From NCBI RefSeq assembly GCF_963921235.1, contig NC_086097.1, forward strand, positions 46,378,001 through 46,442,000: a DNA stretch of 64,000 bases, given 5' to 3'. A program made the translations under genes and the position numbers. Below are positions 4,641-62,500 of the stretch, piece by piece; within the stretch, counting starts at the first letter, position 1; each line of letters begins with the position of its first letter. The notes beneath the pieces were generated by a model that made no database searches, was not told the DNA's origin, and saw only the letters and a list, made by a program, of their open reading frames with translations. This DNA comes from Mobula hypostoma. Lineage: Eukaryota.

Positions 4641-6582
4641 GCAGGACAAGTCAAAGCAAGGCTCGATGCAAACTAACTTGTCACTTTATTCTATTTTCCA
4701 CACGCTAGGTTAACCTTAGGATGTGTAGAGCATAGTCCCTGCTATAGATCTGAACGTAATATAAAATGAAAAAAATGGCTCTCCTTTTAAGTATAGCAAG
4801 TGCCCAGGAATACGTAATATCTAGATCGAAAAATGTTAATACCTGTTTTAGAGAAAATAGTGTATTTATTGGTCAGTGTATTTCAAAACTGTAAATATTC
4901 TCATCTCAAGTGGATATGTAAAATCTAGGGCTGCGCGTTCATTGAAAAGTATTTTTCGTTAGTCTTAACCCTACGTCTTTTCTAAGAAGCATGACTCGAT
5001 GCAAGGTCTCAATTTGAAACATGGGCTAGCCCTTTGCTTCCCCAGATGCCGCCTGAGCCGCCGAGTTCCTCCAGCACTCTTTCCATAAATCATTGGGTTT
5101 TCATTTTCAAACCTTCTGTAAATAATTGCGAAATACTGTTTCTTAATTGCCCTCTGTGAAATGAATATGGTACCTTGTGAATAACCTTTGATACTTACTC
5201 TCAATTTACACTTAGCAAGGTTTTACATACTGTTTTGCTGAACTAAGATTACGGGTAAAAATTGGCCAAGCCACCATTGTACTGTCAAGCTTTTCTTCAG
5301 GTGAAAGATAACACCTCCGATAATGTAACTCCCTCAGCCCCTCAGTGTCAGGCGAGATGCCGGATACCACCTGAACCCCTTTTGCATCCTGCAGCTACAT
5401 ATTGTCTGCAGTAAAAGAATTTCAGTGATCTGTTTTGTTTAAAAAAAACTGATTTGGTAAAGGGTTTCTTCAAAAGATCAGCATTGCTGGAATTACTTGA
5501 CTTCAACTTGAATTAATAATATTTGCACAAAAATAAAAATAAAATGCATCATCTTACAATGTGCATTCTGTGCAATGCTTGACTATGCTTAACCAGGAGG
5601 TATTGATCTGAGAATTTAGATGCCATGGAATGGATTGCAAGACACAACAAGGTAATGAAACATATTATTGGGTTTTGGCAAAAGGAATAAGCACAGTACT
5701 AGACTATAACCTACAGTAGATGCTGTTCTAGAGGGACAGCTCAACCCATACAAACTCAGGGAGGTGAGAATGCTGCTACCTGAGTTACCATTGGGAGGAG
5801 TATATGATGCTTGGTATTGGTCTGAAGAACCAGAAATCATGATTGTGATATCAATGTGCTGAAATTGGTTGGCACCAGGGGAAAAATAAAAGTGTTAAAA
5901 TAAGGTTTGCTTCGTAGACTTTTAGGAACATAAAGATAACAATTTAATTTAATGATTAACATCAAAGGGTATACAGCAGATGCTGGTTGTCTTTGGGTCT
6001 AGTGAGATTTTTAATAAGTAAATTTTGACTTTGAAAGCTAGCATATAATTCATATATTGCTTCTTCCACTGTTTTGTAGTCACTAATAGTCCTTCATGAC
6101 CCCTGGGCTTCAAATCTGCGCTGTTTTACCTGTATCCCTCTCACCGGGCTCATTTGCAAACTTGGCTTGATAGCTAACTTGGCTAACAGCCTTGTGAATC
6201 AGTGATGAGCAGGCCCCCCTTCATAAACAACATACATCTAGAGTTGGTATGATTTCGGGTTCAATCAAACAGGAAATTCGTGATGTTCCAATTAAAGAAA
6301 CCTCGATTAGAGTGAATGTTGAGTAAATACTGCCCATACACAATTATCAGTCAGCAAGAAATAACAAATTGTCCACCATATAAAATTATTTTAAAAGTAT
6401 ATTTACCAATTTCAGCTTTATCAAACAGTTAATAGGAAAAATAAGAAATGCAAAGAAACCAGTCCAATGTGCACATAACCATTGGAGCTCCTACTGGAGT
6501 ATTCAGGAGTGTATCTCTTACTCACACACTGGACCAATGGTCTGCGTGAAAATGCCCACCACATTTTCAAACTCCTCTTGAA

Positions 6583-8398: not shown

Positions 8399-8969
8399 CT
8401 GTACTGTGCAAAAGTCTTAGGCAAATATATACACAGTAGCTAGGATGCCTAAGATTTCTGCACAGTACTGACCATTGGTCAACGTGGAGCAGAGGGCAAG
8501 TTTGTCAATCAGGTGGGAGCAAAGAATGTTGGGAATGGCGAGGTGGAGCATCGCGGGAGGTGTGTGGGACAGATGACAGAGAAGGAGTGCCAGGGGCAGG
8601 AAGTGACACAGGTGCAGACACACCTAGACCTGAGACACCAGGCAAGGTCATTTGATTCCAAACAATTGGTTTATTTATCATTACTGAATGTCTCTGTGGT
8701 GTTATCTCCATTCCCTCTCCCTTCCAATTTTCGCAAACATAATTTCTCTCTCCCTGCCCCCTTCCCACTCTCAGTTCATAATAGAGAGCCATATCAGAGT
8801 CAGGTTTATCATTATTCACGTATGTCATGAATTTTGATTTTTTTGCACAGCCGCTGTGCAATGCAATGCATAAAATTACTACATAACCATGCAGAAGTCT
8901 TAGGCAGCCTAGCTATATTATATACATACATGATATAGCTAGGGTGCCTAAGACTTTTGCATAGTACTG
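8399..8969. mobile_element. Composite Tc1/mariner-like MITE: two palindromic mini-units flanking ~410 bp
   Basis: TIR c(a/t)GTACTGTGCAAAAGTCTTAGGCA occurs four times (pairs 8399-8470 and 8882-8969); TA on both outer sides; flanks read as one interrupted old CR1. Confidence 0.7.
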
Positions 8970-19300: not shown

Positions 19301-21099
19301 GGCAACTACTCAGGGGTTCTAATTATGATGGACTTCAGAGCGGTCTAGATGCTGTGAAAACCCTGAGGCACTTGCTGGGTAAAGGTTGTCAACACCACCA
19401 AATTCTCACCATTGTTCCACTGGGGTGAGTTCCAGGAAGTTCAAGATAATACTGCTTCCTAAATAATTTTGAAAGCTGCTGTCATTTGCCTTTAATAAGC
19501 AATTAACATTTAAAATTTTTGAATGCCACCCCCAAGAGGCTTTCCCAATTGCAGCTTGTATCAGGTTTCTGAGGCAACAGGTTCCGCAGATTTGAAGCTC
19601 CTGTCCTTACCCCAACACACCCACTCACAGGGATTAAAGTTCTCCATAATATGTTTACCACAGTTGCATTAAACCTAGTTTGTAAAACCCTGTATATGCT
19701 TATCTGGAATTTGAACCTTTGTCATCCAAATGATCTTTGACTCTTTTCCTTACAATCATCACTCTGTTACTGTACTACTAGCCACCTGTACAATCTGGTT
19801 TCGTAATAAGAAACCGAAAATATTTTATAAACATTAATGGTAAGGTAAATTCATATACTTTCAAACAAATTACATCATGTAGGCACTTTGTTTTGTTATC
19901 ACACATATGACTGAATATCAAATGAAAACTGCTTCCATTTCTTAATTTAAATCATTATTTATATTGAATGATTATAAATCTAAGCAGCAAATGTGTTCCT
20001 TAGAGAGTTTCTATTTTGATCAAATGAGTTTTAAATTCCAGCATTAGAGTAAATACTGTATGATCCTTCAGTCCTGGAGATATTTAAATTAATCTTTCAT
20101 TGTCTGCAAAGTGTTGTGTTGTATACTTTATAATCCAGTTAACACGGGACCTCTTCATGTTCCACCTGGTTCTGAAGTTCTTCATTTTAATTCATTGACC
20201 TGCCTGTTTTCTCATTGTGTGGGGGATGGTTTGCAGCTGTTTTCTTGTTCTGCAGATGGTGGTGGAGGCTCCACTTTCTGAAAGATGCAAGTGCAGTGAT
20301 GAAAATCCCTGGGATGGCGGTGCACAGCAGGCCTTCACTGTTATCACAGCCATCTGCCACACAATTAGGGGAGGGTGGACATTATGTTCTTACATGTTTA
20401 AAACCAAACAGATGAGATCCAGGAGCAGATTTTAGCAGCAGCAGCCTACAATGCAGACCTGTTTTTTAAAAAAAAAAGTAGCGCCAATTAACAACAAAAA
20501 TAAACGCTGGTGGGACTATAGGTGTCAAGCAGAATCTGTTGGGGGAAAAGAATTGTTTCTTTCAGGCTGAGACCCTGCATCAGGACATCTGATTCAAAAT
20601 GTACATAGGAATTGTGCAAGTTCTACAAGAATGGGTATTTTATTAAAGTTCTGATTACTGCGTATTTAAGTCCGAGACTCAATATGCTTGAATTTGGAAT
20701 TTACTCTTCCCTCTTTTGGCACAGTGAAATGCAGGCATTGGAAATATATGAAGTAAATCTTCAATTTGCTGTTCGGGGAAAAAAACGGTAAATAAAAGTT
20801 AGTAACGAGATTCTGTGCAAACGTCAATTGGCCAGGCAGGTACTAGTTGAAAAGAAATAAATACACACTTCAATGTCTAGCATTGACATCTGTCACCCAC
20901 TTAGGCGGCTCCTTAGCACTGATGTTAACAGTGTGTGTTTTTACAACAGATGACAATGCACTGTGTTCACTGATGACTTATAAGGATCCACAACAGCTGC
21001 TGTCAGGTATGTGCAACTGTGGGTCCAAATATGCCTGTGACATCTTGATGGATGTAGTCTAAAATAAGTATCATGATTGCCACTATATAAATTATGGCT

Positions 21100-22545: not shown

Positions 22546-22580
22546 AGTCCTGATGAAGGTCTCAGCCTGAAATATCGACT
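22546..22580 (+). ncRNA. Minimal type I hammerhead ribozyme in a short Penelope-like tail fragment (fragment runs to ~22660)
   Basis: AGTC-CTGATGA-aggtctcagcct-GAAA-TA-TC-GACT; downstream atagatgctgcctggcctgctgagttcctccagc matches the Penelope tails. Confidence 0.75.
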
Positions 22581-22859
22581 ATACTCTTTTCCATAGATGC
22601 TGCCTGGCCTGCTGAGTTCCTCCAGCATTTTGTGCGTGTTGCTTGGTTTTCCAACATCTATTCTCTTTGCTTTTTCACTCAATCATGCTGTATTGCAAAA
22701 AAATGCCTACTAACACAATCTTATCGATTTGTATAGAAACTGAGATTGACCAGAAATCCTTCAGTAATTGTATTTTTCCGTGTCTCCTTCGTTGAATCAC
22801 AGAATCCAGGGAGAGTTTGCATCACACTCGTGGATGTGGATTCACAACGGAATAAAAAT

Positions 22860-23437
22860 AAGCAAGTTCAGATAGAAATGGCAGAGATGAGCCCAGTTTC
22901 ATCCATTTTATTTTCACCCATTTGGTTGTCTGTGAAAATTTGGGCACCAGGCTCCCCATGAACATGCGGCGTGCTGGACAGGTTTACAGGTGCCGCCCAT
23001 CCATCCACACTCTAGGCCAAGAGCAATGGCACTTTTTGCTAGACAAGTGCCGCAGTCCCAGCCCAATCAGTGAGCGGTGTCCCAAGGGTACCATTGCATT
23101 TAGGTAGGATTGTGACTGAGAGTTGTTCAGACAAAATACTGTGAGTGGTAGTTTCGCACGATTGGCTCTTCAGCCGCAACATGGCACAGAATGTCCGAAC
23201 CTGCAGTTCCTCTCGTACTGAGCAGGGTTATTGTTGTAACAACACATCATCAGCAGGGAAAAACCTACCTGTCTCATAACGGTCTAGACCAAGATCACGT
23301 TCCCTATCAGTGGTCGGACAATCCATCATCTGGCGAATTCTGCTTCACAATGCTAAGAAGAGCCGATCTTGAAGGATCAAAAAGCAGTGTAGCTATGAGC
23401 TCTTGGCCACCACAAGCCAGTTATCACTGTGGTAACT
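22860..23437 (-). pseudogene. Decayed fragment of the 28S rRNA 3' end
   Basis: Reverse complement reads AGTTACCACAG.GATAACTGGCTTGTGG..TTTTTGATCCTTC..TCGGCTCTTC..GTGAAGCAGAATTC..; intact sarcin-ricin loop AGTACGAGAGGAAC at 23206-23219; weaker match to the terminal 28S domain at ~22860-22985. Confidence 0.9.
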
Positions 23438-24219
23438 AAAGGTAAAAAAGAACATGAACCTTTCTAGATATAGTAAATCACCATTCTTGTGCCCTAAATC
23501 CACCCATAGTATCACACTGTTTTAACTAAATTAATCATCTTTTCTCTATTCATTACAAAATTCATTTCATTAGTTTCATTTCTCAGCACGTATAAACAAC
23601 AGGTTAAGAAGCTGCAATCTTTCTGACTCTTTGCCAGTTCTGAGCTATAAATAGACTATAAAGAATTTTTTTTTAGTGATGCTTTGCCTGTAAGAACAGC
23701 AATATTAGAGCTGAGAGTTAAACCCAAGGCAACTGTTAAAGTCCTCCCTTACATGAATTCCTAACATACAAATTAGATGCTATGAGTTTTGACAGGCCTA
23801 TGATCAAAATAAATAAGAAATTAAAATATGCAACACGAAATAAAATTCTGAAATCTGTTAAGTTTTGCTTTATCATGTTTTTACTCAATTAGTAAAAAAA
23901 ATTAATGATACATCATTCATTTTGTACATTCTTCTTACTCTTGGGTAAGATGATGTTAAAAATAAATAAAAGGACAACTTACATTGCTGTAATTACAATT
24001 TGAAATCTTGTTACCTGCATGCAAGCAGTGAACGAATGAAGGACCAATGATTAAATTGATCCATTTTACCCAGGAGAAGAGGTATTGGAAATAACTTGAT
24101 ACGTTAGAGATAACTTATTTGTAAGATCCAACCAAACCTTGCAGCCTCTGGTGAATGATATCTGTTATCTGTCAAGTAGGGTGCCGTGCACAATCCTGAT
24201 TTGATGGTGACAGATGTGA

Positions 24220-29360: not shown

Positions 29361-29656
29361 ATAACGAATGAACCCAGGACCCATTCTCACAGCACTAGCT
29401 ATGTACTAATAGACAAAGAAAGAGAAAAAAAAACCTTACTAGAAATTTACTTAGAGCCTCTGCTTATTTTTGGCCAAGCCTTTTCTCACCTAAGCTCATT
29501 GAGCGAAAGTCTGGCCACTCTTAACACTGTTTACTTCAACCAACCCTGTGAATGTGGAAGGACAAGTTAAAAAGAAAGCAACTAATAAGACACGCAACAT
29601 ACATCAAAGTTGCTGGTGAACGCAGCAGGCCAAGCAGCATCTATAGGAAGAGGTGC

Positions 29657-29692
29657 AGTCGACGTTTCAGGCCGAGACCCTTCGTTAGGACT
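29657..29692 (-). ncRNA. Hammerhead ribozyme copy with core mutation (CUGA to CUAA)
   Basis: AGTC-CTAACGA-agggtctcggcct-GAAA-CG-TC-GACT. Confidence 0.75.
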
Positions 29693-31132
29693 AACTGAAG
29701 GAAGAGTGAGTAAGGGATTTGAAAGTGGGAGGGGGAGGGGGAGATCCAAAATGATAGGAGAAGACAGGAGGGGGAGGGATAGAGCCAAGAGCTGGACAGG
29801 TGATAGGCAAAAGGGGATACGAGAGGATCATGGGACAGGAGGCCCAGGGAGAAAGACAAGGGGGGAGGGGAACCCAGAGGATGGGCAAGGGGTATATTCA
29901 GAGGGACAGAGGGAGAAAAAGGCGAGTGAGAGAAAGAATGTGTGCATAAAAATGAGTAACAGATGGGGTACGAGGGGGAGGTGGGGCATTAGCGGAAGTT
30001 AGAGAAGTCAATGTTCATGCCATCAGGTTGGAGGCTACCCAGACGGAATATAAGGTGTTGTTCCTCCAACCTGAGTGTGGTTTCATCTTTACAGTAGAGG
30101 AGGCCGTGGATAGACATGTCAGAATGGGAATGGGATGTGGAATTAAAATGTGTGGCCACTGGGAGATCCTGCTTTCTCTGGCGGACAGAGCGTAGATGTT
30201 CAGCAAAGCGGTCTCCCAGTCTGCGTCGGGTCTCACCAATATATAAAAGGCCACATCGGGAGCACCGGACGCAGTATATCACCCCAGTCGACTCACAGGT
30301 GAAGTGATGCCTCACCTGGAAGGACTGTTTGGGGCCCTGAATGGTGGTAAGGGAGCAAGTGTAAGGGCATGTGTAGCACTTGTTCCGCTTACATGGATAA
30401 GTGCCAGGAGGGAGATCAGTGGGGAGGGATGGGGGGGACGAATGAACAAGGGAGTTGTGTAGGGAGCGATCCCTGCAGAATGCAGAGAGAGGGGGGGAGG
30501 GAAAGATGTGCTTAGTGGTGGGATCCCGTTGGAGGTGGCGGAAGTTACGGAGAATAATATGTTGGACCCGGAGGCTGGTGGGGTGGTAGGTGAGGACCAG
30601 GGGAACCCTATTCCTAGTGGGGTGGTGGGAGGATGGAGTGAGAGCAGATGTACATGAAATGGGGGAGATGCGTTTAAGAGCAGAGTTGATAGTGGAGGAA
30701 GGGAAGCCCCTTTCTTTAAAAAATGAAGACATCTCCCTCGTCCTACACTCAGGTTGGAGGAACAACACCATATATTCCGTCTGGGTAGCCTCCAACCTGA
30801 TGGCATGAACATTGACTTCTCTAACTTTCGCTAAGGCCCCACCTCCCCTTCGTACCCCATCTGTTACTCATTTTTATGCACACATTCTTTCCCTCACTCT
30901 CCTTTTTCTCCCTCTGTCCCTCTTAATATACCTCTTGCCCATCCTCTGGGTCACCCCCCCCGTCTTTCTTCCCGGACCTCCTATCCCATGATCCTCTCGT
31001 ATCCCCTTTTGCCTATCACCTGTCCAGCTCTCGGCTCTATCCCTCCCCCTCCTGTTTTCTCCTATCATTTTGCATCTCCCCCTCCCCCTCCCCCTCCAGC
31101 ATTCAAATCCCTTACTCACTCTTCCTTCAGTT

Positions 31133-31168
31133 AGTCCTGACGAAGGGTCTCGGCCTGAAACGTCGACT
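31133..31168 (+). ncRNA. Minimal type I hammerhead ribozyme, intact core
   Basis: AGTC-CTGACGA-AGGgtctcggCCT-GAAA-CG-TC|GACT; stem I AGTC/GACT, stem II AGG/CCT, palindromic ACGT stem III; predicted cut after 31164. Confidence 0.88.
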
Positions 31169-33361
31169 GCACCTCTTCCTATAGATGCTGCTTGGCCTGC
31201 TGCGTTCACCAGCAACTTTGATGTATGTTGCTTGAATTTCCAGCATCTGCAGAATTCCTGTTGTTTGCGAACTAATAAGACACCATGTATTCTGCTTTTT
31301 ATAAATTGATTGTTAAAGCCAAGAAGTGATTCTAGCTGAGTAAAACTTTAGTTTTCCCTAGCTGGAGTACTGTATATAATTTCAGGCAAAACTTGAGACC
31401 TGAGAACACGTAAGAGATTTACAAAGAAGTTCTAAGGTTGAGAGATCCTGGCTGCATGGATAGTTTGTAGGAATTGGGATTGTAGGGTGTGATTGGAACA
31501 GAGAATGTTGAAATGACATTTGATAGAGATGCTTAAATCATTAAAATTATAGATAGTGTAAAAAAAAGATAAACTATCTACAGTTGCAGGAGGATCAGCC
31601 ATGCATTTAAAGTGATTGGCAAACAATCCTCAGGTGACATGATAAAATATTTTACTTAACGTGGTTAGGATTTTGAAGTCACTGCCTAAACTAATAATGG
31701 AAAACGACTTTGTATAGTTTCCAAATGCATTAAGAACTGCTCTTCGAAAGGGCTGAATGGCCTCTATCCATCTGTTGAAGAGAAACTTTGGCATAGTAAT
31801 GAATTTGGAACATGTTGTGCTGCTGTTACACAGGAAGATTGGAGATATGACCTGTGATATAATTCCAAGAGGCCACATCCTTCCAGCCTCTTTCCCTAGT
31901 TCAAGGCTATTATATGAATTAAACTGGATATCCTGAATGACATCACAGCTTCTATTCAAATAACTGACTCGCACACGGTCAAAGATGCAACCCAAGACTG
32001 AATGAATGAATTTATGCATAACTAAGAAGAAAGAGGAGCAAAGAGGTAAGTAACACACAATAAATTAGACAGAGAATTCACTAGTTCTATTATTAAATTA
32101 TTTTTAAAGTCAACAGTACTTTATTCATCCAATTAAGTGGATGCTAGTAAAAATTTTGATTTTGCAACAACTCATTTTCAAACTGAATTCAAGCTACTTG
32201 ATTCTTATTTCAGAACGTGTTTCAGCTTATAGTTTGCAACAACTCAACTTGATATATAGAAGATTTAGAATCAGTGAATATTAATTATTGAATGAGGTAA
32301 TTCAAAGCAATCAGTTATTTCCACTCATTTTACCTAACTCCCCCTCCCCCATTTCTGTATCCAGTTTTATTTTGATGGTTGCTATTAATTCCACTGTCAT
32401 CATAAATTGTTGCTTTCTCTTCTGCTGCAGCTACTAATTGATCTGATATTGAGTTTAAAAAGCTGATATTGCCAATCTGCCTAATGCAGTTCTGGTGGAA
32501 GTTCTGCTCCAGAAGACCATGTAATATATTTTGTGGAAGTTTACCTTTCAGAAATTGTTAATGAGCATTTCTCAACATGCTTAAATCTGTTAAATGGGAT
32601 TAAATGACGTCTGAAGTTCTGAAAATTGTGGGATTTTAGAGCCTAAATTATTTATTTGCTCAACTTTAATGCTATTGGTTAAGTGCATCTCCTGCACACC
32701 TCAGCTGTAATTAACATAATTGAGCAGATGGTTACCCATTCAGCAGCTGAGCAGATTGCCTACTCTAACATGATAATGACAATCATATCAATCATGGACC
32801 AATCACTGGAAACAAAACTATATTTCTTGCTTTATTTTGAATATAATGTGATCTTAATTATTCCTCCTTTTAAAAGAGTCTCTTTTCAGATTATAGTGCT
32901 ACATTTCAAAATAAGGAGAAAAATATCTTCATTTAGTGCTAAAGGCCAGTTCAGATACATTTTGTTTGAGATGTGCTTAACCAAATGTCATTTAAGATAT
33001 AAGACTTCAGTGGTATGAATCCAATGGTCAAACTGAAATACTATTTGTCAGCAGACAGATAATATGTACATTGCTATTTGTTTCCCAAAGATCACCAGTT
33101 TGAGCCTTGGTGTATCATGTCTATTGTATGCAAAGGTTTAAAAACAATTTCATGGGAATTAAATGATGCTGTTAATGTGAGGTAATTATTTTAAAATGAC
33201 TTTTAATCCCTTATCCCAGCTCTAGCATTTAATGAGATCTCATCTGATATTTTACTTAGGGTCATTTATATGCACAAACTATCCCTTGGTTCCCTGATAT
33301 CCAGAAATCTGATTATCTTGGTCTTTAATATATTCAGTGACTGAGCTTCACAGCCTTCTTG

Positions 33362-34632
33362 AAAAGAGAATGCCAAAGACTGACAATGCAATTGTTTCTG
33401 TCTTGTCCCACCTGGAAAATGGGGTCTCATATGTCAGGCTGCTGTTTACAGACTTCACTTCAGCATTTAACACTATCATGCCCCAGAAACTGGTGGGAAA
33501 ATTGTCCCTACTGGGCCTCAACACCTCCCACTGCAACTAGATCCTGAACTTCTTAACAGAAGGGCCATAGTCAGTCTGTGTGGGCAGCAACGTCTCCAGT
33601 CCCATCATTACACCGAGTGCTCAGCCTGCTACTGTTCACACGGCTGAGGCATGACTGGGTCGCAGGATTCAACTCAAATCGCGCCATCAAGTTTGCAGAT
33701 GACACAACAGTGATTGGCCTCATCATCAACGATGATTCAGAGTACAGAGAGGAAATGGAGCAGCTGGTGGACTGGTGTGAGAAGAACAATCTAAGTCTGA
33801 ATGTGGCGAAGACCAAGGAAATCATTGTGGACTTCAGGAAAGTGCAGATGAACCATCCCCTTCTACGAATACATGGCTCCTCCATAGCGAGAGTTAAGTG
33901 CACCAAGTTCCTGGGAGTTCACATTATGGATGACCTCATCTTCCTGAATAAGAAGGCATGGCAGCATCTCCACTTCCTAAGGAGATTGAGGAAAATGAGG
34001 CTTGCACCCCCATATTAACTACAATTTATAGGAGTGCCATTGACAGCATCCTGACAAGTTACATCTCCATCTGGTAAGACAGCAGCCAAGCATCGGACCA
34101 GAAGTCCCTGCAAAGGACTGTGAGAATGGTTGAGAGGTTCATAGGAGTCTCCCTACTATCCATCGGGGACATTTATCAGGAGTGCTGTGTATGGAGGGGA
34201 CTTAGTATTATCAGGGATCCCACCCATCCATCCAACATCCTCTTTGACTTTCTACCATCAGGCAAGAGACTCCGATGCATAAAAACAAGAACGGTCAGGA
34301 TGGGAAACAGCTTCTTCCCTCGGGCCGCTAGGATTCTGAACTCCCTGCCGCATCGTGTGTTGCTTGAATTTCTAGCATCTGCAGATTTCCTCGTGTCTGC
34401 ATTCAAAGCGCCATTGGTTAATCTGTTCTGTACCTTACAACATATAAATTATGCACTTTAGTTAGTTTATTTATGCTTAGTTCATCTGTAGATTTTATCC
34501 TTATTTTTATGTTATTGTGCGTTATATATGTTATGTATACTACAGCACTTTTCACCCTGGTTTGGAGAAATGTTGTCTTGCTTGATGGTATACGTGTATA
34601 TAGTTAAATGACAATAAACTTACCTTGACTTA
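33362..34632 (+). mobile_element. Decayed Rex1/Babar-like LINE
   Basis: [65 protein letters not shown]; tail gacaataaacttaccttgact. Confidence 0.88.
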
Positions 34633-36659
34633 ATGATGAGATAACAACTGTGGTTCTCAGTGAGAAGGAAAACTTTGGACTGTGGGATAATGTAGATGGG
34701 CAGAGAATTGTGAGGTTATGCATTTGGAGGAATGCAGCAAGGCCAAGAAGTTCAATCAATAGATTGATACTGAGTGTTGTGGAGAAACAAAAGAAGAACT
34801 TAGAACCTATGGTAACAAATCCTGAAAGAAATCTGGACGGATCAATAATGTGATTAAAATGTCACATGAAATATTTTCCTTTCTTAGCTGAGATATACAA
34901 TATAAAAGAGGGACAGCTGTACCTCAACCGTATATAACATTCGTTAGACCATGGGCTGAGTTCAGCACACTCCTGCTACCACGTCACAGGATATATGTTA
35001 TATAATAGGGTTGATGGAGAGGGGATTTATGAAAATTTGGCCACGATTTGAAAACTGTAGCCGTGAGGAAAGATTGAATGAACTGGTTTTATTTGAAACA
35101 AAAGAGGCCGAGGGAAAGATGTGGTTGAGGTGTAGCTAAAACAAATTGTAGTCTACTTCCTTTAGCAAAGATATCAAAAACATGGAGCATAAATTTAAAT
35201 TTAAAATAATTAGCAGAAGGATTAGAAGGGAGATGAAGTAAAAAAAATTACCCAGAGAATGGTAAGGATCTGAAACTCACTGCCAGAAAGGATGGTAGAA
35301 ACCCTCATCGCAGTTAAAAATTCCTTGTTTGTGCACTTGAAGAGCAGTGACCTGCTTGGACCTAGTGCTGGGATAGCAGTTCTTTGATCTGCATGAAGAA
35401 CACAATTGACTGAGTAAACTTTCAATCATTCTGTGATTCACAAACTTTTTTGATACTTCATCATAGGCAGCAGAAGGAAGGAGGGAACAAACAACCTACA
35501 GGTTGAGCAGCATCTCTGGGGGGAAGGAGTCGTTGACATTTCAGGTGCATGAGGGCCACAAGATTGCACATTACTTTAGATATTAGCATCTGAACTCTCT
35601 GTGTCATCAAGAAGAATGGGGTGCCTGATAATCAGCATCTTGTCAGAGTTCCCTTAAATTACAGGGGAAAATTGGAAGGAGCAATGAGGTCATGTAGAAT
35701 GAAACCAATAACTATGCAGCTAAGAAGGTCAAGGTGCACTGATTCCTACTTACTGATACAGAACATCCCTCCTTCACTGGGACCTTTAGTCCCTGCATGA
35801 CCTCTACTTAGTCCCTGTGCCATCTTAAAAACTGCTGCACTGTGTTGGCCAGTCTACTCCACACTCACGGCAGAAGTGAGGAAAACACTGCTTATTCAGC
35901 ACTCTAATGTATCATTTCTTAATGCATGCATTACTAAATGACAATAAAAGAGGACTGCGCGTCTTCATAATCTAATGACCGTCCTACAGGTGTCTGATTT
36001 AATACTTCCAGACATATTCAGATTATGATAATCAGTAATTTGAACCAGAATTCTGTACTATAACCATTAAATGGACGTGTTTTTGTATCACAAAACCCAT
36101 TTAATATCTGATTTCAGTTTTTCATTAAAATCAATTTCTGCAAAGGAGCATTTTTTCACAGGTTGCATTAGGTATTAGTTTCCAATATCTAGACTTAGGA
36201 AAACAGTATAAGCTTATTTTATATCAAAGGTTCAAAGGTTCATTTATTAGCGAAGTATACAACTATGAAAATTTTCTTCTCCAGATATCCACGAAACCAA
36301 GAAAGAAAAGAATGACAGCACGATCGTCAATCCCCAAATCATCAACCCCCAAATCCCTCCTCCTTATGCAAAAAAACCAAACAAAATGGAACATATAAAT
36401 GGAAAATACTGGAGATGCTCCCAAATCTGTAAGTACTCAGCATACCAGACAGCATCTGTGGAGAGAGAAAAATAAGAGTTACCTTGTTATCATAAATAAA
36501 AGCGAAGGGTGGGAAAAGGAGAGGAAACGATAAAGACAGGGCTGTGCTGGAGTAGAAGACAAAAGATATTAAATGGTGTAATGCAGGACAAATAAAGGGG
36601 AAAATGGAACAGATGAAGAAATAAAAGATCAATATTAAATATAGATAGAAGATTCAAAG

Positions 36660-44110: not shown

Positions 44111-44809
44111 CAGCAAGCTTTACGTCCCAGCAAAATAAACTGCTGGAGGAACTCAGCAGGTCAAGCAACATCTGTGGGGGAATAGGAACTGCCAACGTGT
44201 TGGGTCAAGCCCTACATCAGGACAATACATCAATTAATTAACTGGAGCCCTTGATTGCTGCACTTCCATCTACAATCGACATTTCTCAGACAGATACAGA
44301 ATGAATAAATATCAGTGCAACCTTATTAAACTGCATAAACGTTGACTCAAGCAGCAATAAACTTACATGTCATAAGTTATTCCTTCTAAGCAGTTGAGAC
44401 AGCCCTAGGGTTTTCTAAGTACTGATAATAGTCCTACAGCGGCGGTAACGTAGGTGTGATAAATATATTTTAATTTTTTTTGTGAATTTTCATACAAAAT
44501 TATCCAATGTTATTAGATCTTTGGTGCTTCCACAAAGGATCACAAAATCGAGGCCAGGAACCAAAATGCTATCAGATTGAAAGGATAAAATGATTGTTAA
44601 GTTAATAAGGGAAATAATGTTAATTTTTATAAAACAATTTTAACAGGGATTGGATTTAACAGGGCTTGGGAATATGGCTGAAGACAGACGATGGTGCCAC
44701 CTACTGGTTCATTATGGTCCCATTCGGGACCATCAGTACTTTAACTGTTGGAGTTTCTGAAGTGCCATCATGATTCGATTGTTAGTGATGTACCATATGG
44801 TATGTAGTA

Positions 44810-49004: not shown

Positions 49005-49175
49005 AACACGCAAATAATGCTGGAGGAACTCAACAGATCCGGGCAGCATCTGTAGAAAGGAATAAAAAGTGAACCTCACTGGCTGAGACCCTTCATTAGG
49101 ACTGGAGAGGAAGGGGGAAGAAGCTAGAATAAGAAGGTGGAAGGAGGGGAGGAAACACAAGCTGGCAAGTGATGG
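49005..49175 (-). mobile_element. Old Penelope-like tail with degenerate hammerhead
   Basis: tgctggaggaactca..gcagcatctg..ggctgagacccttcattaggact; GAAA box lost. Confidence 0.65.
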
Positions 49176-51920: not shown

Positions 51921-53120
51921 AAGACCATAACACAAAGGAGCAGAAGTCGGCCATTCAGCCCATTGAGTCTGCTCTGCCATTTTATCATGAGCTGATCCAT
52001 TCTCCCATTTAGTCCCACTCCCCTGCCTTCTCACCATAACCTTTGATGCCCTGGCTACTTAGATACCTATCAATCTCTGCCTTAAATACATCCAATGACT
52101 TAGCCTCCACTGCCACCCGTGGCAACAAATTCCATAGATTCATCACCCTCTTCCAAAAAAAATTTCTTCGCATCTCTGTTCTGAATGGGTGCCCTTCAAT
52201 CCTTAAGTCATGCCCTCTCGTACTAGACTCCCCCATCATGGGAAACAACTTTGTCACATCCACTCTGTCCATTCCTTTCAACATTCAAAATGTTTCTATG
52301 AGGTCTCCCCTCATTCTTCTAAACTCCAAGGAACACAGTCCAAGAGCGGACAAACGTTCCTCATATGTTAACCCTCTCATTCCCAGAATCATTCTAGTGA
52401 ATCTTCTCTGTACCCTCTCCAACGTCAGCACATCCTTTCTTAAATAAGGAGACCAAAACTGCCCACAGTACTCCAAGTGAGGTCTCACCAGCGCCTTATA
52501 GAGCCTCAACATCACATCCCTGCTCCTATACTCTATTCCTCTAGAAATGAATGCCAACATTGCATTCGCCTTCTTCACCACCGACTCAACCTGCAGGTTA
52601 ACCTTAAGGGTATCCTGTACAAGGACTCCCAAGTCCCATTGCATCTCAGAACTTTGAATTCTCTCCCCATTTAAATAATAGTCTGCCTGTTTATTTCTTC
52701 TGTCAAAGTGCATAACCATACACTTTCAAACATTGTATTTCATTTGACACTTCTTTGCCCATTCTTACAATCTATCCAAGTCTCTCTGCAGACTCTCTGT
52801 TTCCTCAGCACTAGCGGCCCCTCCACCTATCTTCGTATCGTCAGCAAACTTAGCCACAAAGCCATCTATTCCATAATCCAAATTGTTGATGTACAATGTA
52901 AAAAGAAGCGGCCCCAACACAGACCCCTGTGGAACACCACTGGTAACTGGCAGCCAACCAGAATAGGATCCCTTTATTCTCACTCTCTGTTTCCTGCTAA
53001 TCAGCCAACGCTCTATCCACGTAAACAACAGGAATTCTGCGGATGCTGGAAATTCAAGCAACACACACAAAAGTTGCTGGTGAATGCAGCAGGCCAGGCA
53101 ACATCTATAGGAAGAGGTGC

Positions 53121-53156
53121 AGTCGACGTTTCAGACCGAGACCCTTCGTCAGGACT
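53121..53156 (-). ncRNA. Minimal type I hammerhead ribozyme, intact core
   Basis: AGTC-CTGACGA-AGGgtctcggTCT-GAAA-CG-TC-GACT (G-U pair in stem II). Confidence 0.85.
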
Positions 53157-54462
53157 AACTGAAGGAAGAGTGAGTAAGGGATTTGAAAGTTGGAGGGGGA
53201 GGGGGAGATCCAAAATGATAGGAGAAGACAGGAGGGGGAGGGATGGAGCCAAGAGCTGGACAGGTGATAGGCAAAAGGGATATGAGAGGATCATGGGACA
53301 GGAGGTCCGGGAAGAAAGACAAGGAGGTGGGGGGGGGGACGCAGAGGATGGGCAAGAGGTATATTCAGAGGGACAGAGGGAGAAAAAGGAGAGTGAGAGA
53401 AAGAATGTGTGTATAAAAATAAGTAACAGACGGGGTACGAGGGGGAGGTGGGGCATTAGCGGAAGTTAGAGAAGTCGATGTTCATGCCATCAGGTTGGAG
53501 GCTACCCAGACGGAATATAAGGTGTTGTTCCTCCAACCTGAGTGTGGCTTCATCTTTATAGTAGAGGAGGCCGTGGATAGACATGTCAGAATGGGAATGG
53601 GATGTGGAATTAAAATGTGTGGCCACTGGGAGATCCTGCTTTCTCTGGCGGACAGAGCATAGATGTTCAGCAAAGCGGTCTCCCAGTCTGCGTCGGGTCT
53701 CGCCAATATATAAAAGGCCACATCGGGAGCACCGGACGCAGTATATCACCCCAGTCGACTCACAGGTGAAGTGTTGCCTCACCTGGAAGGACTGTTTGGG
53801 GCCCTGAATGGTGGTAAGGGAGGAAGTGTAAGGGCATGTATAGCACTTGTTCCGCTTACACGGATAAGTGTCAGGAGGGAGATCAGTGGGGAGGGATGGG
53901 GAGGACGAATGGACAAGGGAGTTGCGTGGGATCGATCCCTGCGGAATGCAGAGAGAGGGGGGGAGGGAAAGATGTGCTTAGTGGTGGGATCCCGTTGGAG
54001 GTGGCGGAAGTTACGGAGAATAATATGTTGGACCCAGAGGCTGGTGGGGTGGTAGGTGAGGACCAGGGGAACCCTATTCCTAGTGGGGTGGCGGGAGGAT
54101 GGAGTGAGAGCAGATGTACGTGAAATGAGGGAGATGCGTTTAAGAGCAGAGTTGATAGTGGAGGAAGGGAAGCCCCTTTCTTTAAAAAAGGAAGACATCT
54201 CCCTCGTTCTAGAATGAAAAGCCTCATCCTGAGAGCAGATGTGGCGGAGACGGAGGAATTGTGAGAAGGGGATGGCGTTTTTGCAAGAGACAGGGTGAGA
54301 AGAGGAATAGTCCAGATAGCTGTGAGAGTCAGTAGGCTTATAGTAGACATCAGTGGATAAGCTGTCTCCAGAGACAGAGACAGAAAGATCTAGAAAGGGG
54401 AGGGAGGTGTCGGAAATGGACCAGGTAAACTTGAGGGCAGGGTGAAAGTTGGAGGCAAAAAA

Positions 54463-56381
54463 AACTGCCGATGGGACATCAATCATCTCGACTTCACTGC
54501 ACCTTGTCCCCATTCCAGCCTCACTCCTTCGGAACACTCTGCTCTCCACTCCCTCCGCTCTAATCCTAACCTTATTATTAAACCCGCCGATAAGGGGGGT
54601 GCTGTTGTAGTCTGGCGTACTGACCTCTACCTTGCCGAGGCACAGCGACAACTCGCGGATACCTCCTCTTATTTACCCCTCGATCGTGACCCCACTAAGG
54701 AGCACCAGGCCATTGTCTCTCACACCATCACCGACTTTATCCGCTCAGGGGATCTCCCATCCACTGCTACCAACCTTATAGTTCCCACACCTCGCACTTC
54801 CCGTTTCTACCTCCTACCCAAGATCCACAAACCTGCCTGTCCTGGCCGACCTATTGTCTCCGCTTGCTCCTGCCCCACCGAACTCGTTTCTGCATACCTC
54901 GACACGGTTTTATCCCCCCTTGTTCAATCCCTTCCGACCTATGTTCGTGACACATCTTACGCTCTTAAACTTTTCGATGATTTTAAGTTCCCTGGCCCCC
55001 ACTGCTTTATCTTCACCATGGATGTCCAGTCCCTATATACTTCCATCCCCCATCAGGAAGGTCTCAAAGCTCTACGCTTCTTTTTGGATTCCAGACCTAA
55101 TCAGTTCCCCTCTACCACCACTCTGCTCCGTCTAGCGGAATTAGACCTTACTCTTAATAATTTCTCCTTTGGCTCCTCCCACTTCCTCCAAACTAAAGGT
55201 GTAGCTATGGGCACCCGTATGGGTCCTAGCTATGCCTGCCTTTTTGTTGGCATTGTGGAACAATCTATGTTCCGTGCCTATTCTGGTATCTGTCCCCCAC
55301 TTTTCCTTCGCTACATTGACGACTGCATTGGCGCTGCTTCCTGCACGCCTGCAGAACTCGTTGACTTTATTAACTTTGCCTCCAACTTCCACCCTGCTCT
55401 CAAGTTTACCTGGTCCATTTCCGACACCTCCCTCCCCTTTCTAGATCTTTCTGTCTCTGTCTCTGGAGACAGCTTATCCACTGATGTCTACTATAAGCCT
55501 ACTGACTCTCACAGCTATCTAGACTATTCCTCTTCTCACCCTGTCTCTTGCAAAAACGCCATCCCCTTCTCGCAATTCCTCCATCTCCACCGCATCTGCT
55601 CTCAGGATGAGGCTTTTCATTCTAGAACGAGGGCGATGTCTTCCTTTTTTAAAGAAAGGGGCTTCCCTTCCTCCACTATCAACTCTGCTTTTAAACGCAT
55701 CTCCCCCATTTCACATACATCTGCTCTCACTCCATCCTCCCGCCACCCCACTAGGAATAGGGTTCCCCTGGTCCTCACCTACCACCCCACCAGCCTCCGG
55801 GTCCAACATATTATTCTCCGTAACTTCCGCCACCCCCAATGGGATCCCACCACTAAGCACATCTTTCCCTCCCCCCTCTCTCTGCATTCCACAGGGATCG
55901 CTCCCTACGCATCTCCCTTGTCCATTCATTCGTCCCCCCATCCCTCCCCACTGATCTCCCTCCTGACATTTATCCGTGTAAGCGGAACAAGTGCTATACA
56001 TGCCCTTACACTTCCTCCCTTACCACCATTCAGGGCCCCAAACAGTCCTTCCAGGTGAGGCAACACTTCACCTGTGAGTCGATTGGGGTGATATACTGCG
56101 TCCGGTGCTCCTGATGTGGCCTTTTATATATTGGCGAGACCCGACGCAGACTGGGAGACCGCTTTGCTGAACATCTGTGCTCTGTCCGCCAGAGAAAGCA
56201 GGATCTCCCAGTGGCCACACATTTTAATTCCACATCCCATTCCCAGTCTGACATGTCTATCCATGGCCCCCTCCACTGTAAAGACGAAGTCACACTCAGG
56301 TTGGAGGAACAACACCTTATATTCCGTCTGGGTAGCCTCCAACCTGATGGCATGAACATCGACTTCTCTAACTTCCGCTAA
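54463..56381 (+). pseudogene. Penelope/Neptune-type reverse transcriptase-GIY-YIG ORF, 5'-truncated, frameshifted near 55870, stop near 56113
   Basis: IKPADKGGAVVV, FYLLPKIHK, PGRPIVS, MDVQSLYTSIPH, GVAMGTRMGPSYACLF, LRYIDD, FLDL, VYYKPT; ends ..DFSNFR*. Confidence 0.92.
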
Positions 56382-56677
56382 TGCCCCACCCCCCCGTACC
56401 CCATCTGTTACTTATTTTTATACACACATTCTTTCTCTCACTCTCCTTTTTCTCCCTCTGTCCCTCTGAATATACCCCTTGCCCATCCTCTGCGTCCCCC
56501 CCCCCACCTCCTTGTCTTTCTTCCCGGACCTCCTGTCCCATGATCCTCTCATATCCCTTTTGCCTATCACCTGTCCAGCTCTTGGCTCCATCCCTCCCCC
56601 TCCTGTCTTCTCCTATCATTTTGGATCTCCCCCTCCCCCTCCAACTTTCAAATCCCTTACTCACTCTTCCTTCAGTT

Positions 56678-56713
56678 AGTCCTGACGAAGGGTCTCGGCC
56701 TGAAACGTTGACT
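56678..56713 (+). ncRNA. Minimal type I hammerhead ribozyme, GUU cleavage triplet
   Basis: AGTC-CTGACGA-AGGgtctcggCCT-GAAA-CG-TT-GACT. Confidence 0.82.
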
Positions 56714-59145
56714 GCACCTCTTCCTAGAGATGCTGCCTGGCCTGTTGCGTTCACCAGCAACTTTTGCGTGTGTTGCTCTATCCACATATGTAACTTTCCC
56801 GTAATTCCATGGGCTCTTATCTTGTTAAGTAGCCTCATGTGTGGCACCTTGGCAAAGGCCTTCTGAAAATCCAAATATACAACATCCACTGCATCTCCCT
56901 TGTCTAGCCTACTTGTAATTTCCTCAAAAAATTGTAATAGGTTTGTCAGGCAGGATTTTCCTTTAAGGAATCCATGCTGAGTTCTGCCTATCTTGTCATA
57001 TGCCTCCAGGTACTCTGTAACCTCATCCTTGACAATTGACTCCAACAACTTCCCAACCACCGATGTCAAGCTAACAGGTCTATAATTTCCTTTTTGCCTC
57101 CTTGCCCCCTTCTTAAATAGCGGAGTGACATTTGAAATCTTCCAGTCCTCTGGAACCATGCCAGAATCTATCGACTTTTGAAAGATCATCACTAATGCCT
57201 CCACAATCTCCACAGCTACTTCCTTCAGAACACGAGGGTGCATTCCATCTGGTCCAGGAGATTTATCTACCTTTAGACTATTCAGCTTCCTGAGTACTTT
57301 CTCTGTTGTAATTGTGACTGCACACACTTCTCTTCCCTGCCACCCTTGAGTGTCCGGTATACTGCTGATGTCTTTCTCAGTGAAGACTGATGCAAAATAC
57401 TCACAGTTCCTCTGCCATCTCCTTATCTCCCATTACAATTACTCCAGCATCATTTTCTATTGGTCCTATATCTACTCTCACCTGTCTTTTACTCTTTATA
57501 TACCTGAAAAAGCTTTTAGTATCCTCTTCGATATTATTTGCTAGCTTCCTTTCATAGTTAATCTTTTCCCTCATAATGACCTTCTTAGTTTCCTTTTGTA
57601 AGCTTTTAGAAACTTCCCAATCCTCTGTCTTCCTACTAATTTTTGCTTCCTTGTATGCCCTCTCCTTTGCTTTAACTTTGGCTTTGACTTCTCTTGTCAG
57701 CCATGGTGGCATCCTTTTTCCCTTCGAAAATTTCTTCTTTTTTGGAATATATCTGTCTTGCACCTTCCTCACTTCTTGTATAAACTCCAGCCACTGCTGC
57801 TCTGTCATCCTTCCCGCCAGTATCCCTTTCCAGTTAACTTTGGCCAGTTCCTCTCTCATGCCACTATAATTTCCTTTACTCCACTGAAATACCGACACAT
57901 CAGATTTTGGCTTCTCTTTTTCAAATTTCACAGTGAACTCAGTCATGCTATGATCACTGCTTCCTAAGGGTTCCTTCACCTCAATCTCTCTAATCACCTC
58001 CGGTTCATTACACAATACCCAATCTAGTACAGCTGATCCCCTAGTGGGCTCAACAACAAGCTGTTCTAAAAAGCCATCTCGCAGACATTCTACAAATTCT
58101 CTCTCTTGAGATCCACTGCCGACCTGATTTTCCCAATCAACTCGCATGTTAAAATCCCCCACAATTATCATAACACTGCCCTTCTGACAAGCCTTTTCTA
58201 TTTCCTCTTGTAATTTGTAGTCCACATCACTGCAGTTGTTTGGAGGCCTATAAATAACTGCCATCAGGGTCCTTTTACCCCTGCGATTTCTTAGCTCAAC
58301 CCATAAAGATTCTGCACCTTCCTATCCTATATCGCCTCTTTCTAATGATCTAATATCATTTCTTACCAATAAATCCACGCCTCCTCCTCCCCCCGCCTAC
58401 CTTCCTATCCTTCCGATACACCGTGTATCCTTGGACGTTCAGCTCCCAGAGACATGCATCCTTCAGCCACATCTCAGTGATGGCCACAATATCATACCTG
58501 CCAATCTGTAGCTGTACGACAAGATCATCCACCTTATTCCTTATGCTGCGTGCATTTAAGTATAACACCTTAAGACCAGTATTTGGTACTTTTCGCTCTG
58601 ATTTCACTGCAACTCATCCCAATGGCTACAAATTTGCCCCACCACCTGCCTGTCTTTCCTGACATCTTTACTGCTCACTATCTTAGATTTATTTCTGTTT
58701 TCCCCTTCTTCCGCTCTATCATTCCGGTTCCCATCCCCTTGCCAAATTAGTTTAAACCCTCCCTAACAGCTCTATTAAACCTTCCCGCCAGGATATTGGT
58801 CCCCTTCGGGTTCAGCTGTAACCTGTCCCTTTTGAACAGGTCAAATATTTGTTAATGCGGGAACAAGCACTTTAAAAATGAGATTATTGTAGGATTGGTA
58901 TTAATGGATGTGCAGACTGGGTGAGCCTAAGGCCCCATTCCTGTGATGTCTCTCTCTAATTCTCTGGCTAAGAAATTTTACAGGAGATTTTCAGTAACAC
59001 CCACTGTTTCTGGAGAGGAATAAGAAGATTCAGTAGTGTGGCTTTTCAAACAGTGTTGTCAAAATATATCACTTTAGAGCTTTATCCATCAATTTTAGGG
59101 AGATAGGCAAAGAAGTTTTCACACTGAAAAAATGACCCAGGTGTA

Positions 59146-59219
59146 AATGTCCACTGTACCTCTTCCTAGAGATGCTGCCTGGCCTGCTGCGTTCACCAGC
59201 AACTTCGATGTGTGTTGTT
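59146..59219 (+). mobile_element. 74-bp Penelope tail micro-insertion
   Basis: Matches ~31159-31232; flanked by AGGTGTA at 59139-59145 and 59220-59226. Confidence 0.75.
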
Positions 59220-59526
59220 AGGTGTATTCTTGTATCATTGCAGTCAATTTCTTGCTTATCCTTCAATGAAAAGAATGGCTCAAACGCAGAAGAGGTGGAC
59301 ATTTACGGGAGTCTTGGAGGACACCTTCACCTCTAAGTTCTAAAACATTATTCTAAACATCAATTGGTTTGGGCCCTTGTCTGTTTCCCACTACATGTCA
59401 GGAAAACCCAAGAAATTGCTAAAGAATTTTAATAAATGAAAACAGAATTTGAATATAAACCTTTGTGTGTTCAGCTACTGCACAGAGGCATTTTCTACTA
59501 AATGTGATCAATGGTTAGAAGAAGTC

Positions 59527-62500
59527 ATAGTTAGAATAGTACAGCACATTAGAGGCCCTTCGGCCCACAATGTTGTGCCGACCCTCAAACACTGCCTCCC
59601 ATATAACCCCCCCACCTTAAATTCCGCCATATACCTGTCTAGTAGTCTCTTAAACTTCACTAGTGTATCTGCCTCCACCACTGACTCAGACAGTGCATTC
59701 CACGCACCAACCACTCTCTGAGTAAAAAAACCCTCCTCTGATATCCCCCTTGAACTTCCCACCCCTTATCTTAAAGCCATGTCCTCTTGTATTGAGCATT
59801 GGTGCCCTGGGGATGAGGCGCTGGCTATCCACTCTATCTATACCTCTTAATATCTTGTATACCTCTATCATGTCTCCTTTCATCCTCCTTTTCTCTAAAG
59901 AGTAAAGCCCTAGCTCCCTTAATCTCTGATCATAATCCATACTCTTTAAACCAGGCAGCATCCTGATAAATCTCCTCTGTACCCTTTCCAATGCTTCCAT
60001 ATCCTTCCTATAGTGAGGCGACCAGAACTGGACACAGTACTCCAAGTGTGGCCTAACCAGAGTTTTATAGAGCTGCATCATTACCTCGCAACTCTTAAAC
60101 GCTATCCCTCGACTTATGAAAGCTAACACCCTATAAGCTTTCTTAACTACCCTATCCACCTGTGAGGCAACTTTCAGGGACCTGTGGACATGTACCCCCA
60201 AATCCCTCTGCTCCTCCACACTGCCAAGTATCCTTCCATTTACTTTGTACTCTGCCTTGGAGTTTGTCCTTCCAAAGTGTACCACTTCACACTTCTCCGG
60301 GTTGAACTCCATCTGCCACTTCTCAGCCCACTTTTGCAACCTATCAATGTCTCTCTGCAATCTTTGATAATCCTCTACACTATCTACAACACCACCAACC
60401 TTTGTGTTGTCTGCAAACTTGCCAACCCACCTTTCTACCCCCATATCCAGGTCGTTAATAAAAATCACGAAAACTAGAGGTCCTAGAACCGATCCTTGTG
60501 GGACACCACTAGTCACAACCCTCCAATCCGAATGTACTCCCTCCACCACGTCCCTCTGCCTTCTGCAGGTAAGACAATTCTCAATCCACCTGGCCAAACT
60601 TCCCTGGATCCCATGCCTTCTGACTTTCTGAATAAGCCTACCATGTGGAACTTTGTCAAATGCCTTACTAAAATCTATATAGATCACATCCACTGCACTC
60701 CCCTCATCTATATGCCTGGTCACCTCCTCAAAAAACTCTATCAGGCTTGTTAGACACAATCCGCCCTTCACAAAGCCATGCTGACTGTCCCTGATCAGAC
60801 CATGATTCTCTATATGCCTATAGATCCTATCTCTAAGAATCTTTTCCAACAGCTTTCCCACCACAGACGTAAGGCTCACTGGTCTATAATTACCCGGATT
60901 ATCCTTGCTACCTTTTTTGAACAAGGGGACAACATTCGCCTCCCTCCAATCCTCCGGTACCATTCCCATAGACAACGAGGACATAAAGGTCCTAGCCAGA
61001 GGCTCAGCAATCTCTTTCCTTGCCTCATGGAGCAGCCTGGAGAATATTCCATCGGGCCCCGAGGACTTATCAGTTCTAATGTATTTTAATAACTCCAACA
61101 CCTCCTCTCCCTTAATATCAACATGCTCCAGAACATCAACCTCACTCATATTGTCCTCACTGTCATCAAGTACCCTCTCATTGGTGAATGCCAAAGAGAA
61201 GTATTCATTGAGGACCTCGCACACTTCCACAGCCTCCAGGCACATCTTCCCACCTTTATCTCTAATCGGTCCTACCTTCACTCCTGTCATCCTTTTTTTC
61301 TTCACATAATTGAAGAATGCCTTGGGGCTTTCCTTTACCCTACTCGCCAAGGCCTTCTCATGCCCCCTTCTTGCTCTTCTCAGACCCTTCTTAAGCTCCT
61401 TTCTCGCTACCCTATATTCCTCAATAGACCCATCTGATCCTTGCTTCCTAAACCTCATGTATGCTGCCTTCTTCCACCTGACTAGATTTTCCACCTCACT
61501 TGTCACCCATCGTTCCTTCACCCGACCATTCTTTATTTTCCTCACCAGGACAAATTTATCCCTAACATCCTGCAAGAGATCTCTAAACATCGACCACATG
61601 TCCATAGTACATTTCCCTACAAAAACATCATCCCAGTTCACACCTGCAAGCTCTAGCCTTATAGCCTCATAATTTGCCCTTCCCCAATTAAACATTTTCC
61701 TGTCCTCTCTGATTCTATCCTTTTCCATGATAATGCTGAAGGCCAGGGAGTGGTGGTCACTGTCCCCCAGATGCTCACCCACTGAGAGATCTGTGACCTG
61801 ACCCGGTTCTTTACCTAATACTAGATCTAGCATGGCATTTCCCCTAGTCGGCCTGTCAACATACTGTGACCAGAATCCATCCTGGTCACACTTAACAAAC
61901 TCTGCCCTGTCCAAACCCTTGGAACTAATCAGGTGCCAATCAATATCAGGGAAGTTAAAGTCACCCATGATAACAACCCTGTTATTTTTGCACCTTTCCA
62001 AAATCTGCCTCCCAATCTGCTCCTCGGTATCTCTGCTGCTACCAGGGGGCCTATAGTATACTCCCAATAGAGTAACTGCTCCCTTACTGTTATTGACTTC
62101 CACCCATACTGACTCAAAAGAGGATTCTGCTACATTACCCACCCTTTCTGTAGCTGTAATAGTATCCCTGACCAGTAATGCCACCCCTCCTCTCCTTTTT
62201 CCCCTCTCTCTATCCCTTTTAAAGCACTGAAATCCAGGAATATTGAGAATCCATTCCTGCCCTGGTGCCAGCCAAGTCTCTGTAATGGCCACTACATCAT
62301 AATTCCATGTATGTATCCAAGCTCTCAGTTCATCACCTTTGTTCCTCATGCTTCTTGCATTGAAGTACATGCACTTTAGCCCTTCTACCTTCCTACCTTT
62401 ACACACTTTATTCTGCTTCTCTTTCCTCAAAGCCTCTCTATATGTTAGATCTGGCTTTACTCCATGCACTTCTTTCACTGCTCTATCGCTCCAGGTCCAA

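Follow-up and report, generated by a model that had tools for sequence, protein, structure and literature searches.

The whole stretch of Mobula hypostoma DNA analyzed here (contig NC_086097.1; 64,000 nt, hereafter the window) contains four 36-nt motifs that the initial annotation read as minimal hammerhead ribozymes residing in the arms of Penelope elements. This reading raises the questions of whether the motifs are hammerheads of the Penelope type, what they would do in the source element, and whether the copies in the window can still do it.

Four loopless type I hammerhead motifs

The four copies were verified at the annotated coordinates and strands, with the CUGAnGA and GAAA boxes, a 4-bp stem I, and an ACGU stem III. 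Positions are those of the window, and bit scores refer to the covariance model R1 described below.

29657-29692, minus strand: hammerhead copy 1; G5A change, predicted dead; would-be cut 29661/29660; 28.3 bits
31133-31168, plus strand: hammerhead copy 2; predicted cut 31164/31165; top R1 match, 34.8 bits, E 2e-7
53121-53156, minus strand: hammerhead copy 3; canonical core and GUC, private stem II C-to-U change at 53135; would-be cut 53125/53124; 33.4 bits
56678-56713, plus strand: hammerhead copy 4; GUU at the cut site; would-be cut 56709/56710; 33.0 bits

Each copy consists, in this order, of AGUC, the CUGAnGA box, a short stem II hairpin, GAAA, CG, the UH cut site, and GACU. AGUC and GACU pair as stem I, which closes the core and the cut site in all copies, whereas stem III is loopless throughout and made up of the palindrome A15.1-C-G-U16.1. 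The type I core (C3-U4-G5-A6-N7-G8-A9; G12-A13-A14-A15.1; U16.1-H17) is complete in three of the four copies. The exception is the copy at 29657-29692, where the annotated G5A change was confirmed; G5A is a published inactivating change (PMC4027429), in agreement with the previous statement that G5 is needed for activity. The GUU in the 56678-56713 copy is a CpG-type transition. NUH cleavage tolerates U. Shuffling of the window yielded an expectation of 0.02 matches to the general descriptor per window and no loopless match in 100 shuffles, and a separate pattern search also returned zero matches in 100 shuffles. Judged by sequence and context, the motif is of an already known kind and displays every feature of a Penelope minimal hammerhead, which the four copies almost certainly are.

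The motifs lie in the pseudo-LTRs of two head-to-head insertions

The four motifs are distributed over two insertions, each flanked by a target site duplication (TSD) and containing remnants of the element open reading frame (ORF).

29580-29593, plus strand: left TSD of insertion 1; 14 bp, exact repeat of 31270-31283
29594-30744, minus strand: longer arm of insertion 1; 1151 nt, 5′-truncated Penelope-like 3′ end with the short tail, stopping 67 nt past the cut
29992-30741, minus strand: end of the element ORF; reverse transcriptase (RT) thumb region, C-x4-C-xx-C linker, and GIY-YIG endonuclease, in frame
30745-31269, plus strand: shorter arm of insertion 1; 525 nt, long tail, stopping 105 nt past the cut
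31232-31269, plus strand: one-sided tail of insertion 1; 38 nt
31270-31283, plus strand: right TSD of insertion 1; 14 bp
53010-53020, plus strand: left TSD of insertion 2; 11 bp, within a CR1/L2-type LINE RT remnant
53021-54459, minus strand: shorter arm of insertion 2; 1439 nt, long tail, stopping 104 nt past the cut
53021-53057, minus strand: one-sided tail of insertion 2; 37 nt
54460-56774, plus strand: longer arm of insertion 2; about 2315 nt, short tail, containing the bulk of the RT; endonuclease region disrupted
54466-55875, plus strand: Penelope-type RT fragment; 470 aa, with a DKG motif and YIDD
56775-56785, plus strand: right TSD of insertion 2; 11 bp, the first 3 nt of which also match the element end

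The arms of insertion 1 meet head to head with an overlap of about 1 nt. Insertion 2 is hosted by a LINE RT ORF that is split at the 53010-53020 site, and 28 and 37 contigs from two sequencing runs continued across this site in its empty form. Both insertions combine an inverted truncated arm, a one-sided tail, and a target duplication, and in both one arm ends 65 to 68 nt and the other 104 to 105 nt past the cut site. About 300 contigs per run depart from the family sequence at 53023, i.e., at the long-tail end, into mixed flanks. One contig of run X2 connects the long-tail end (53023) with endonuclease-region sequence on the opposite strand (53521), perhaps reflecting insertion into another copy. 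The tail is carried by the shorter arm in the two cases (cut-to-inner-end lengths of 420 versus 1084 nt and 1335 versus 2250 nt), an outcome with a chance of 0.25; we found no statement on which arm has the tail in the consulted portions of PMC8557442, PMC3846280, and PMC8969392 or by keyword searches. The short-tail end coincides with the 3′ foot of a small predicted hairpin, and the seven tail stretches folded gave no signal above shuffles (z of −1.2 to +1.2).

All four arms carry the motif on the sense strand of the pseudo-LTR, about 300 nt past the ORF stop. The GIY-YIG region of the 29992-30741 frame matched Pfam weakly (E 6e-4, below the cut-off) and aligns to the C-terminus of full-length relatives; the match of 53459-53977 to the same domain was above the cut-off (24.7 bits). 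Similarly, the 54466-55875 fragment gave a weak match to RVT_1 (E 8.5e-6, below the cut-off) and is colinear with full-length relatives and 58% identical to proteins of 840 to 955 aa, several of which have a GIY-YIG domain. The C-x4-C-xx-C linker is present in the window ORF and in most relatives, and a CX2-5CxxC linker between RT and endonuclease is common to Neptune and Nematis (PMC8557442). These domains identify the source as a Penelope-like element of the endonuclease-positive kind, and its Cys linker is of the Neptune/Nematis type.

Stem II register and predicted folds

Stems I and III were correctly drawn in the initial annotation, but its 3-bp stem II is better replaced by a bulged A followed by four pairs. 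The preferred stem II consists of an unpaired A, then G10.1·U11.1, G-C, G-C, and U·G, and a CUCG loop, with a predicted energy of −6.0 kcal/mol versus −4.6 kcal/mol for the former register. One unpaired base after A9 also improved stem II pairing in 17 of 17 loopless relatives. Furthermore, position 11.1 is U in the window copies but C in 17 to 27% of the aligned family depth (53133); this C mends the G10.1-C11.1 pair of the bulged register and would break the A-U pair of the former reading. Among 12 relatives, the 10.1/11.1 pair was G-C in 11 and G·U in the remaining one.

Fold energies were computed with nearest-neighbour parameters, i.e., without tertiary terms. The monomer was predicted to adopt an inactive rod (−10.0 versus −6.0 kcal/mol), formed through pairing of the core GACG with CGUC, and the predicted monomer fold of the 53121 copy is devoid of stem I. 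The rod (N7 pairing with 16.2) was rejected as a general feature, being shared by the young and old window families but failing, by eye, in the related loci L017, L022, L028, and L032. A double-hammerhead fold scored −9.5 kcal/mol versus −20 kcal/mol for two inactive monomers and −28 kcal/mol for the best predicted duplex. This weak score fits the low published dimer activity and the protein need in the Anolis element. Indeed, weak cutting even in dimeric form has been published for Penelope motifs (PMC4209133; review PMC6765202), and cleavage in PAc, a Poseidon element of Anolis carolinensis, was described only with the element protein (Frangieh et al. 2024, PMC11167929).

Conservation of the motif in relatives

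Relatives were retrieved from metagenome contigs with an alignment of six relatives plus the window RT as a query, and the best 80 of 475 confirmed loci were analyzed. Scanning these best 80 of 475 loci with the descriptor returned 24 sense matches versus 1 antisense match (null expectation, 0.3 per shuffle). Sense matches occurred in 22 of the 80 loci; the 58 without a match include many short contigs that may end before the pseudo-LTR. Seventeen of the 24 sense matches were loopless, and the stem III dinucleotide, left unconstrained by the descriptor, was palindromic in 15 of these 17, the two others (CA and TG) looking like CpG decay of one family. Once 5 duplicate and 7 loop-bearing rows had been removed, the dinucleotides in the resulting 12-row alignment were CG (4), UA (4), GC (2), UG (1), and CA (1, unpaired). 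The palindrome in 10 of 12 relatives supports dimer cleavage. The initial annotation is supported in assigning the motifs to the minimal type I hammerheads of Penelope elements, with a palindromic stem III that points to action as dimers. Pairing in stems I and II and the core were required by the descriptor, so that covariation of these two stems in relatives is partly built in.

The covariance model R1, built from the 12 relatives with zero window sequence, ranked the four copies first to fourth (28 to 35 bits) and an older copy at 22546-22580 fifth (27.0 bits, E 3e-5), the next match being at 11.7 bits. The window motifs share the catalytic boxes with Rfam hammerhead families, but none of these families was found at E≤10 among the 12 matches listed for the window; the proposed Infernal check with Rfam hammerhead models was therefore negative, and the custom model was needed. 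Exact-pattern scans of viral and metagenome contigs returned no match, and a protein-based scan of viral contigs confirmed 0 of 19 candidates.

In four old window fragments and in 275 contigs of run X2, young and old families are alike from the 5′ edge of stem I onward, the pattern to be anticipated when the motif is conserved and the UTR upstream of it changes. No difference in the catalytic boxes appeared among the 40 best-supported of the 115 family differences listed. Two of the 80 loci contain tandem sense-strand hammerheads one unit apart (L048 at 30 and 3449, a 3.4-kb unit; L022 at 2489 and 3703), a layout that would permit a cis dimer. By self-BLAST, no inverted sense/antisense hammerhead pair was found in the 80 related loci.

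These data bear on whether the hammerhead could be a hitch-hiker, i.e., a retrozyme-like parasite of the pseudo-LTR that brings no benefit to the element. This idea has been raised in the literature (PMC8557442), non-LTR retrozymes derive from pseudo-LTRs (bioRxiv 10.64898/2026.07.22.740005), and several old fragments in the window comprise little beyond the motif and a tail. However, the sense-strand motif has been retained beside the ORF in relatives that share only 33 to 63% RT identity with the query, and in L048 it recurs one 3.4-kb unit apart; we thus regard a mere hitch-hiker as rather unlikely. Unlike in a non-LTR retrozyme, the window copies are embedded in inverted ORF-bearing arms and not in tandem units.

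The window copies are probably decaying passengers

Private changes were identified in three of the four copies, and only the 31133 copy is family-like throughout. At 53135, for instance, the family state C accounts for 96 to 100% of the aligned family depth, whereas the 53121 copy has U. Private changes amounted to 3/144 inside the motifs versus 27/1764 in flanking arm DNA, i.e., to indistinguishable rates (Fisher p 0.49, with little power from 3 events). Over the shared 490 nt, arms diverge by 1.9 to 3.7% within an insertion and by 4.6 to 5.7% between insertions. Ten of 11 informative columns group the arms by insertion, indicating that both arms of an insertion stem from one source. Since an insertion has its motifs on opposite strands, a transcript contains a single sense motif and a cis dimer is precluded; in the folded read-through RNA of insertion 1, all 36 motif bases were paired, with the sampled partners in the antisense copy. 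The cut site 53124/53125 was not among the 18 loose contig ends listed of 2458, which are too few to count either way, and the one raw-read run aligned (X24) yielded 2 reads. The four copies are probably not functional today but passengers that decay neutrally.

The initial annotation had pointed out that the long-tail arms keep the canonical core with GUC. This holds in the two insertions, both of which have CUGACGA and GUC in that arm, but loses its meaning with n=2 and a motif change rate equal to that of the flanks, which attributes the pattern to chance. A functional long-tail arm with its hammerhead core under selection, as hinted at there, is extremely improbable: besides the equal rates, the 53121 copy has its private stem II change and its predicted monomer fold without stem I, the GUU of the short-tail arm is a CpG-type transition, and the motif would be buried in read-through RNA.

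A model for the motif in the source element

The explanation that we favor, and deem highly probable as a whole, is that the motifs are minimal hammerheads of Penelope pseudo-LTRs that act as dimers in the source element and persist here as decayed passengers. Dimer cleavage as their role in the source, taken by itself, is a probable but model-based proposal. A lone motif, whose stem III has no loop, could not close and would fold into the inactive rod. When two motifs meet, either within a tandem source transcript with its two pseudo-LTRs or between two transcripts, ACGU would pair with ACGU and the strands of stem I would be exchanged. The resulting double hammerhead would cut after GUC slowly, probably with the help of the element protein. 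Lunse et al. have reportedly described dimer cleavage. Cutting may then trim or circularize the source RNA.

During insertion, each of the two target strands would be primed, with RNA start sites 67 and about 105 nt past the cut, and copying would pass through an uncut or re-joined motif before the two truncated cDNAs are joined head to head. All four arms run through the cut site, which implies that the templates were uncut or re-joined. Extension of two strands, as in Anolis, together with two start regions would account for the inverted arms, the one-sided tail, and the duplication observed here. Once inserted, the sense motif would be buried by read-through transcription in a long duplex with the antisense arm.

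Copying through the cut site in four of four arms is also what would be anticipated if the motif were a folded binding site or RNA-RNA clasp for a dimeric RT-endonuclease, with cutting being incidental or rare; the palindrome would then pair two transcripts, one template per subunit, giving rise to the two inverted arms. Covariation of the palindrome in relatives and the single source of both arms in each insertion are compatible with such a function, although a single RNA explains the one-source arms equally well. In the Anolis system, catalytic mutations left insertion in vitro unaffected, extension occurred on both target strands, and a dimeric protein was predicted, but C3-G8-dependent cleavage does occur with the protein (PMC11167929). 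Moreover, the full core and U16.1 are invariant in relatives (though required by the descriptor), and Naiads, which lack a canonical hammerhead, also form tails and inverted arms (PMC8557442). Overall, this alternative is unlikely, and its stronger version, in which the loopless hammerhead is mainly a clasp that holds two transcripts for the dimeric RT-endonuclease, is more unlikely still. According to the latter, the palindrome and the exchanged stem I strands would keep the transcripts together while each subunit primes one target strand at a different start site. If true, the head-to-head arms and the one-sided tail would result from a single mechanism, which predicts a genome-wide rule linking tail and arm. 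A tentative possibility that needs no clasp is that two polymerases copy the same RNA; the one primed at the tail would lag behind and stop sooner, which would leave the tail on the shorter arm, as observed in the two insertions.

Older fragments and other features of the window

Beyond the two insertions, the window contains older or unrelated pieces.

22546-22580, plus strand: fifth, older hammerhead; AUAU palindrome, one stem II base missing
4998-5076, plus strand: decayed solo fragment of an older related family
20560-20586, minus strand: decayed solo fragment of an older related family
36423-36462, minus strand: decayed solo fragment of an older related family
44141-44223, minus strand: decayed solo fragment of an older related family
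49006-49103, minus strand: decayed solo fragment of an older related family
34355-34400, plus strand: 46 nt with little beyond the long tail, alone inside a LINE 3′ remnant
59145-59217: 73-nt fragment that stops at the short-tail end
22845-23500, minus strand: degenerate 28S rRNA 3′ fragment, 182 bits
8889-8962: near-perfect 74-nt palindrome
59686-62646, minus strand: ORF2 of a young CR1/L2-type LINE; open frame of 986 aa that includes APE endonuclease and RT domains

The hammerhead at 22546-22580, absent from the initial annotation, is on a solo 3′-end fragment that derives from a related family; the 28S rRNA fragment lies about 190 nt away. The five decayed solo fragments are mostly a motif plus a short tail, with broken cores. 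The 59145-59217 fragment is bracketed by a 12-nt inverted repeat (59142-59153 and about 59287-59298). It was discarded as a cleavage footprint, since the motif is still matched by six of the eight bases that precede its ACTG, placing the start of the fragment about 7 nt ahead of the cut site. The 8889-8962 palindrome scored weakly with miRNA models on both strands, below their gathering scores, and is more likely a small fold-back repeat.

Comparison with published systems and significance

Minimal hammerheads have been described in metazoan Penelope pseudo-LTRs, including those of Xena, Poseidon, and Neptune of fishes (Cervera and de la Pena 2014, PMC4209133), along with thousands of single copies in a genome and opposite-strand pairs separated by 100 to 700 bp. 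Like those motifs, the window copies are of type I, lack loop III, and have a palindromic 15.2-16.2, a stem I within the 4- to 5-bp range, an extra base between 9 and 10.1, and G10.1. They depart from the Schistosoma motifs in the same report in stem II, of 4 bp with two wobbles (G10.1·U11.1 in most copies) instead of 7 to 8 bp. The consulted portions of its text name no cartilaginous fish, but its supplementary alignments may list this family; a more recent study sampled one chondrichthyan (bioRxiv 10.64898/2026.07.22.740005). Further background is available in PMC6155905 and PMC7229834.

PAc resembles the window element in having a hammerhead upstream of two RT start regions, an optional 30- to 40-nt tail, an uncut template, and extension of both strands. 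In that system, cleavage was dispensable for insertion in vitro, and the report describes no RNA-seq reads ending at the cut site (PMC11167929). PAc belongs to the Penelope/Poseidon clade and its ORF begins inside the ribozyme (PMC11167929), whereas the window element is characterized by the C-x4-C-xx-C linker, and the single ATG frame seen in its motif and tail closes after 16 codons. Published insertions of endonuclease-positive Penelope elements likewise show head-to-head arms, a 30- to 40-bp tail at one end, and a TSD, which in rotifers is of 8 to 10 bp as compared with 11 and 14 bp here (Craig et al. 2021, PMC8557442; Arkhipova et al. 2013, PMC3846280). Naiad elements, in turn, amplify without canonical hammerheads (PMC8557442).

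Collectively, the motif, the inverted arms, the one-sided tail, and the opposite-strand pairs have all been published before, and the finding is real but ordinary: it adds one family to a described class. Young copies of this family are, nonetheless, very numerous, with 184,031 and 201,643 contigs matching a 731-nt family stretch in two runs, and such a number, unlike those of small genomes, allows statistics on 5′ ends at the cut site and on the side of the tail versus arm length.
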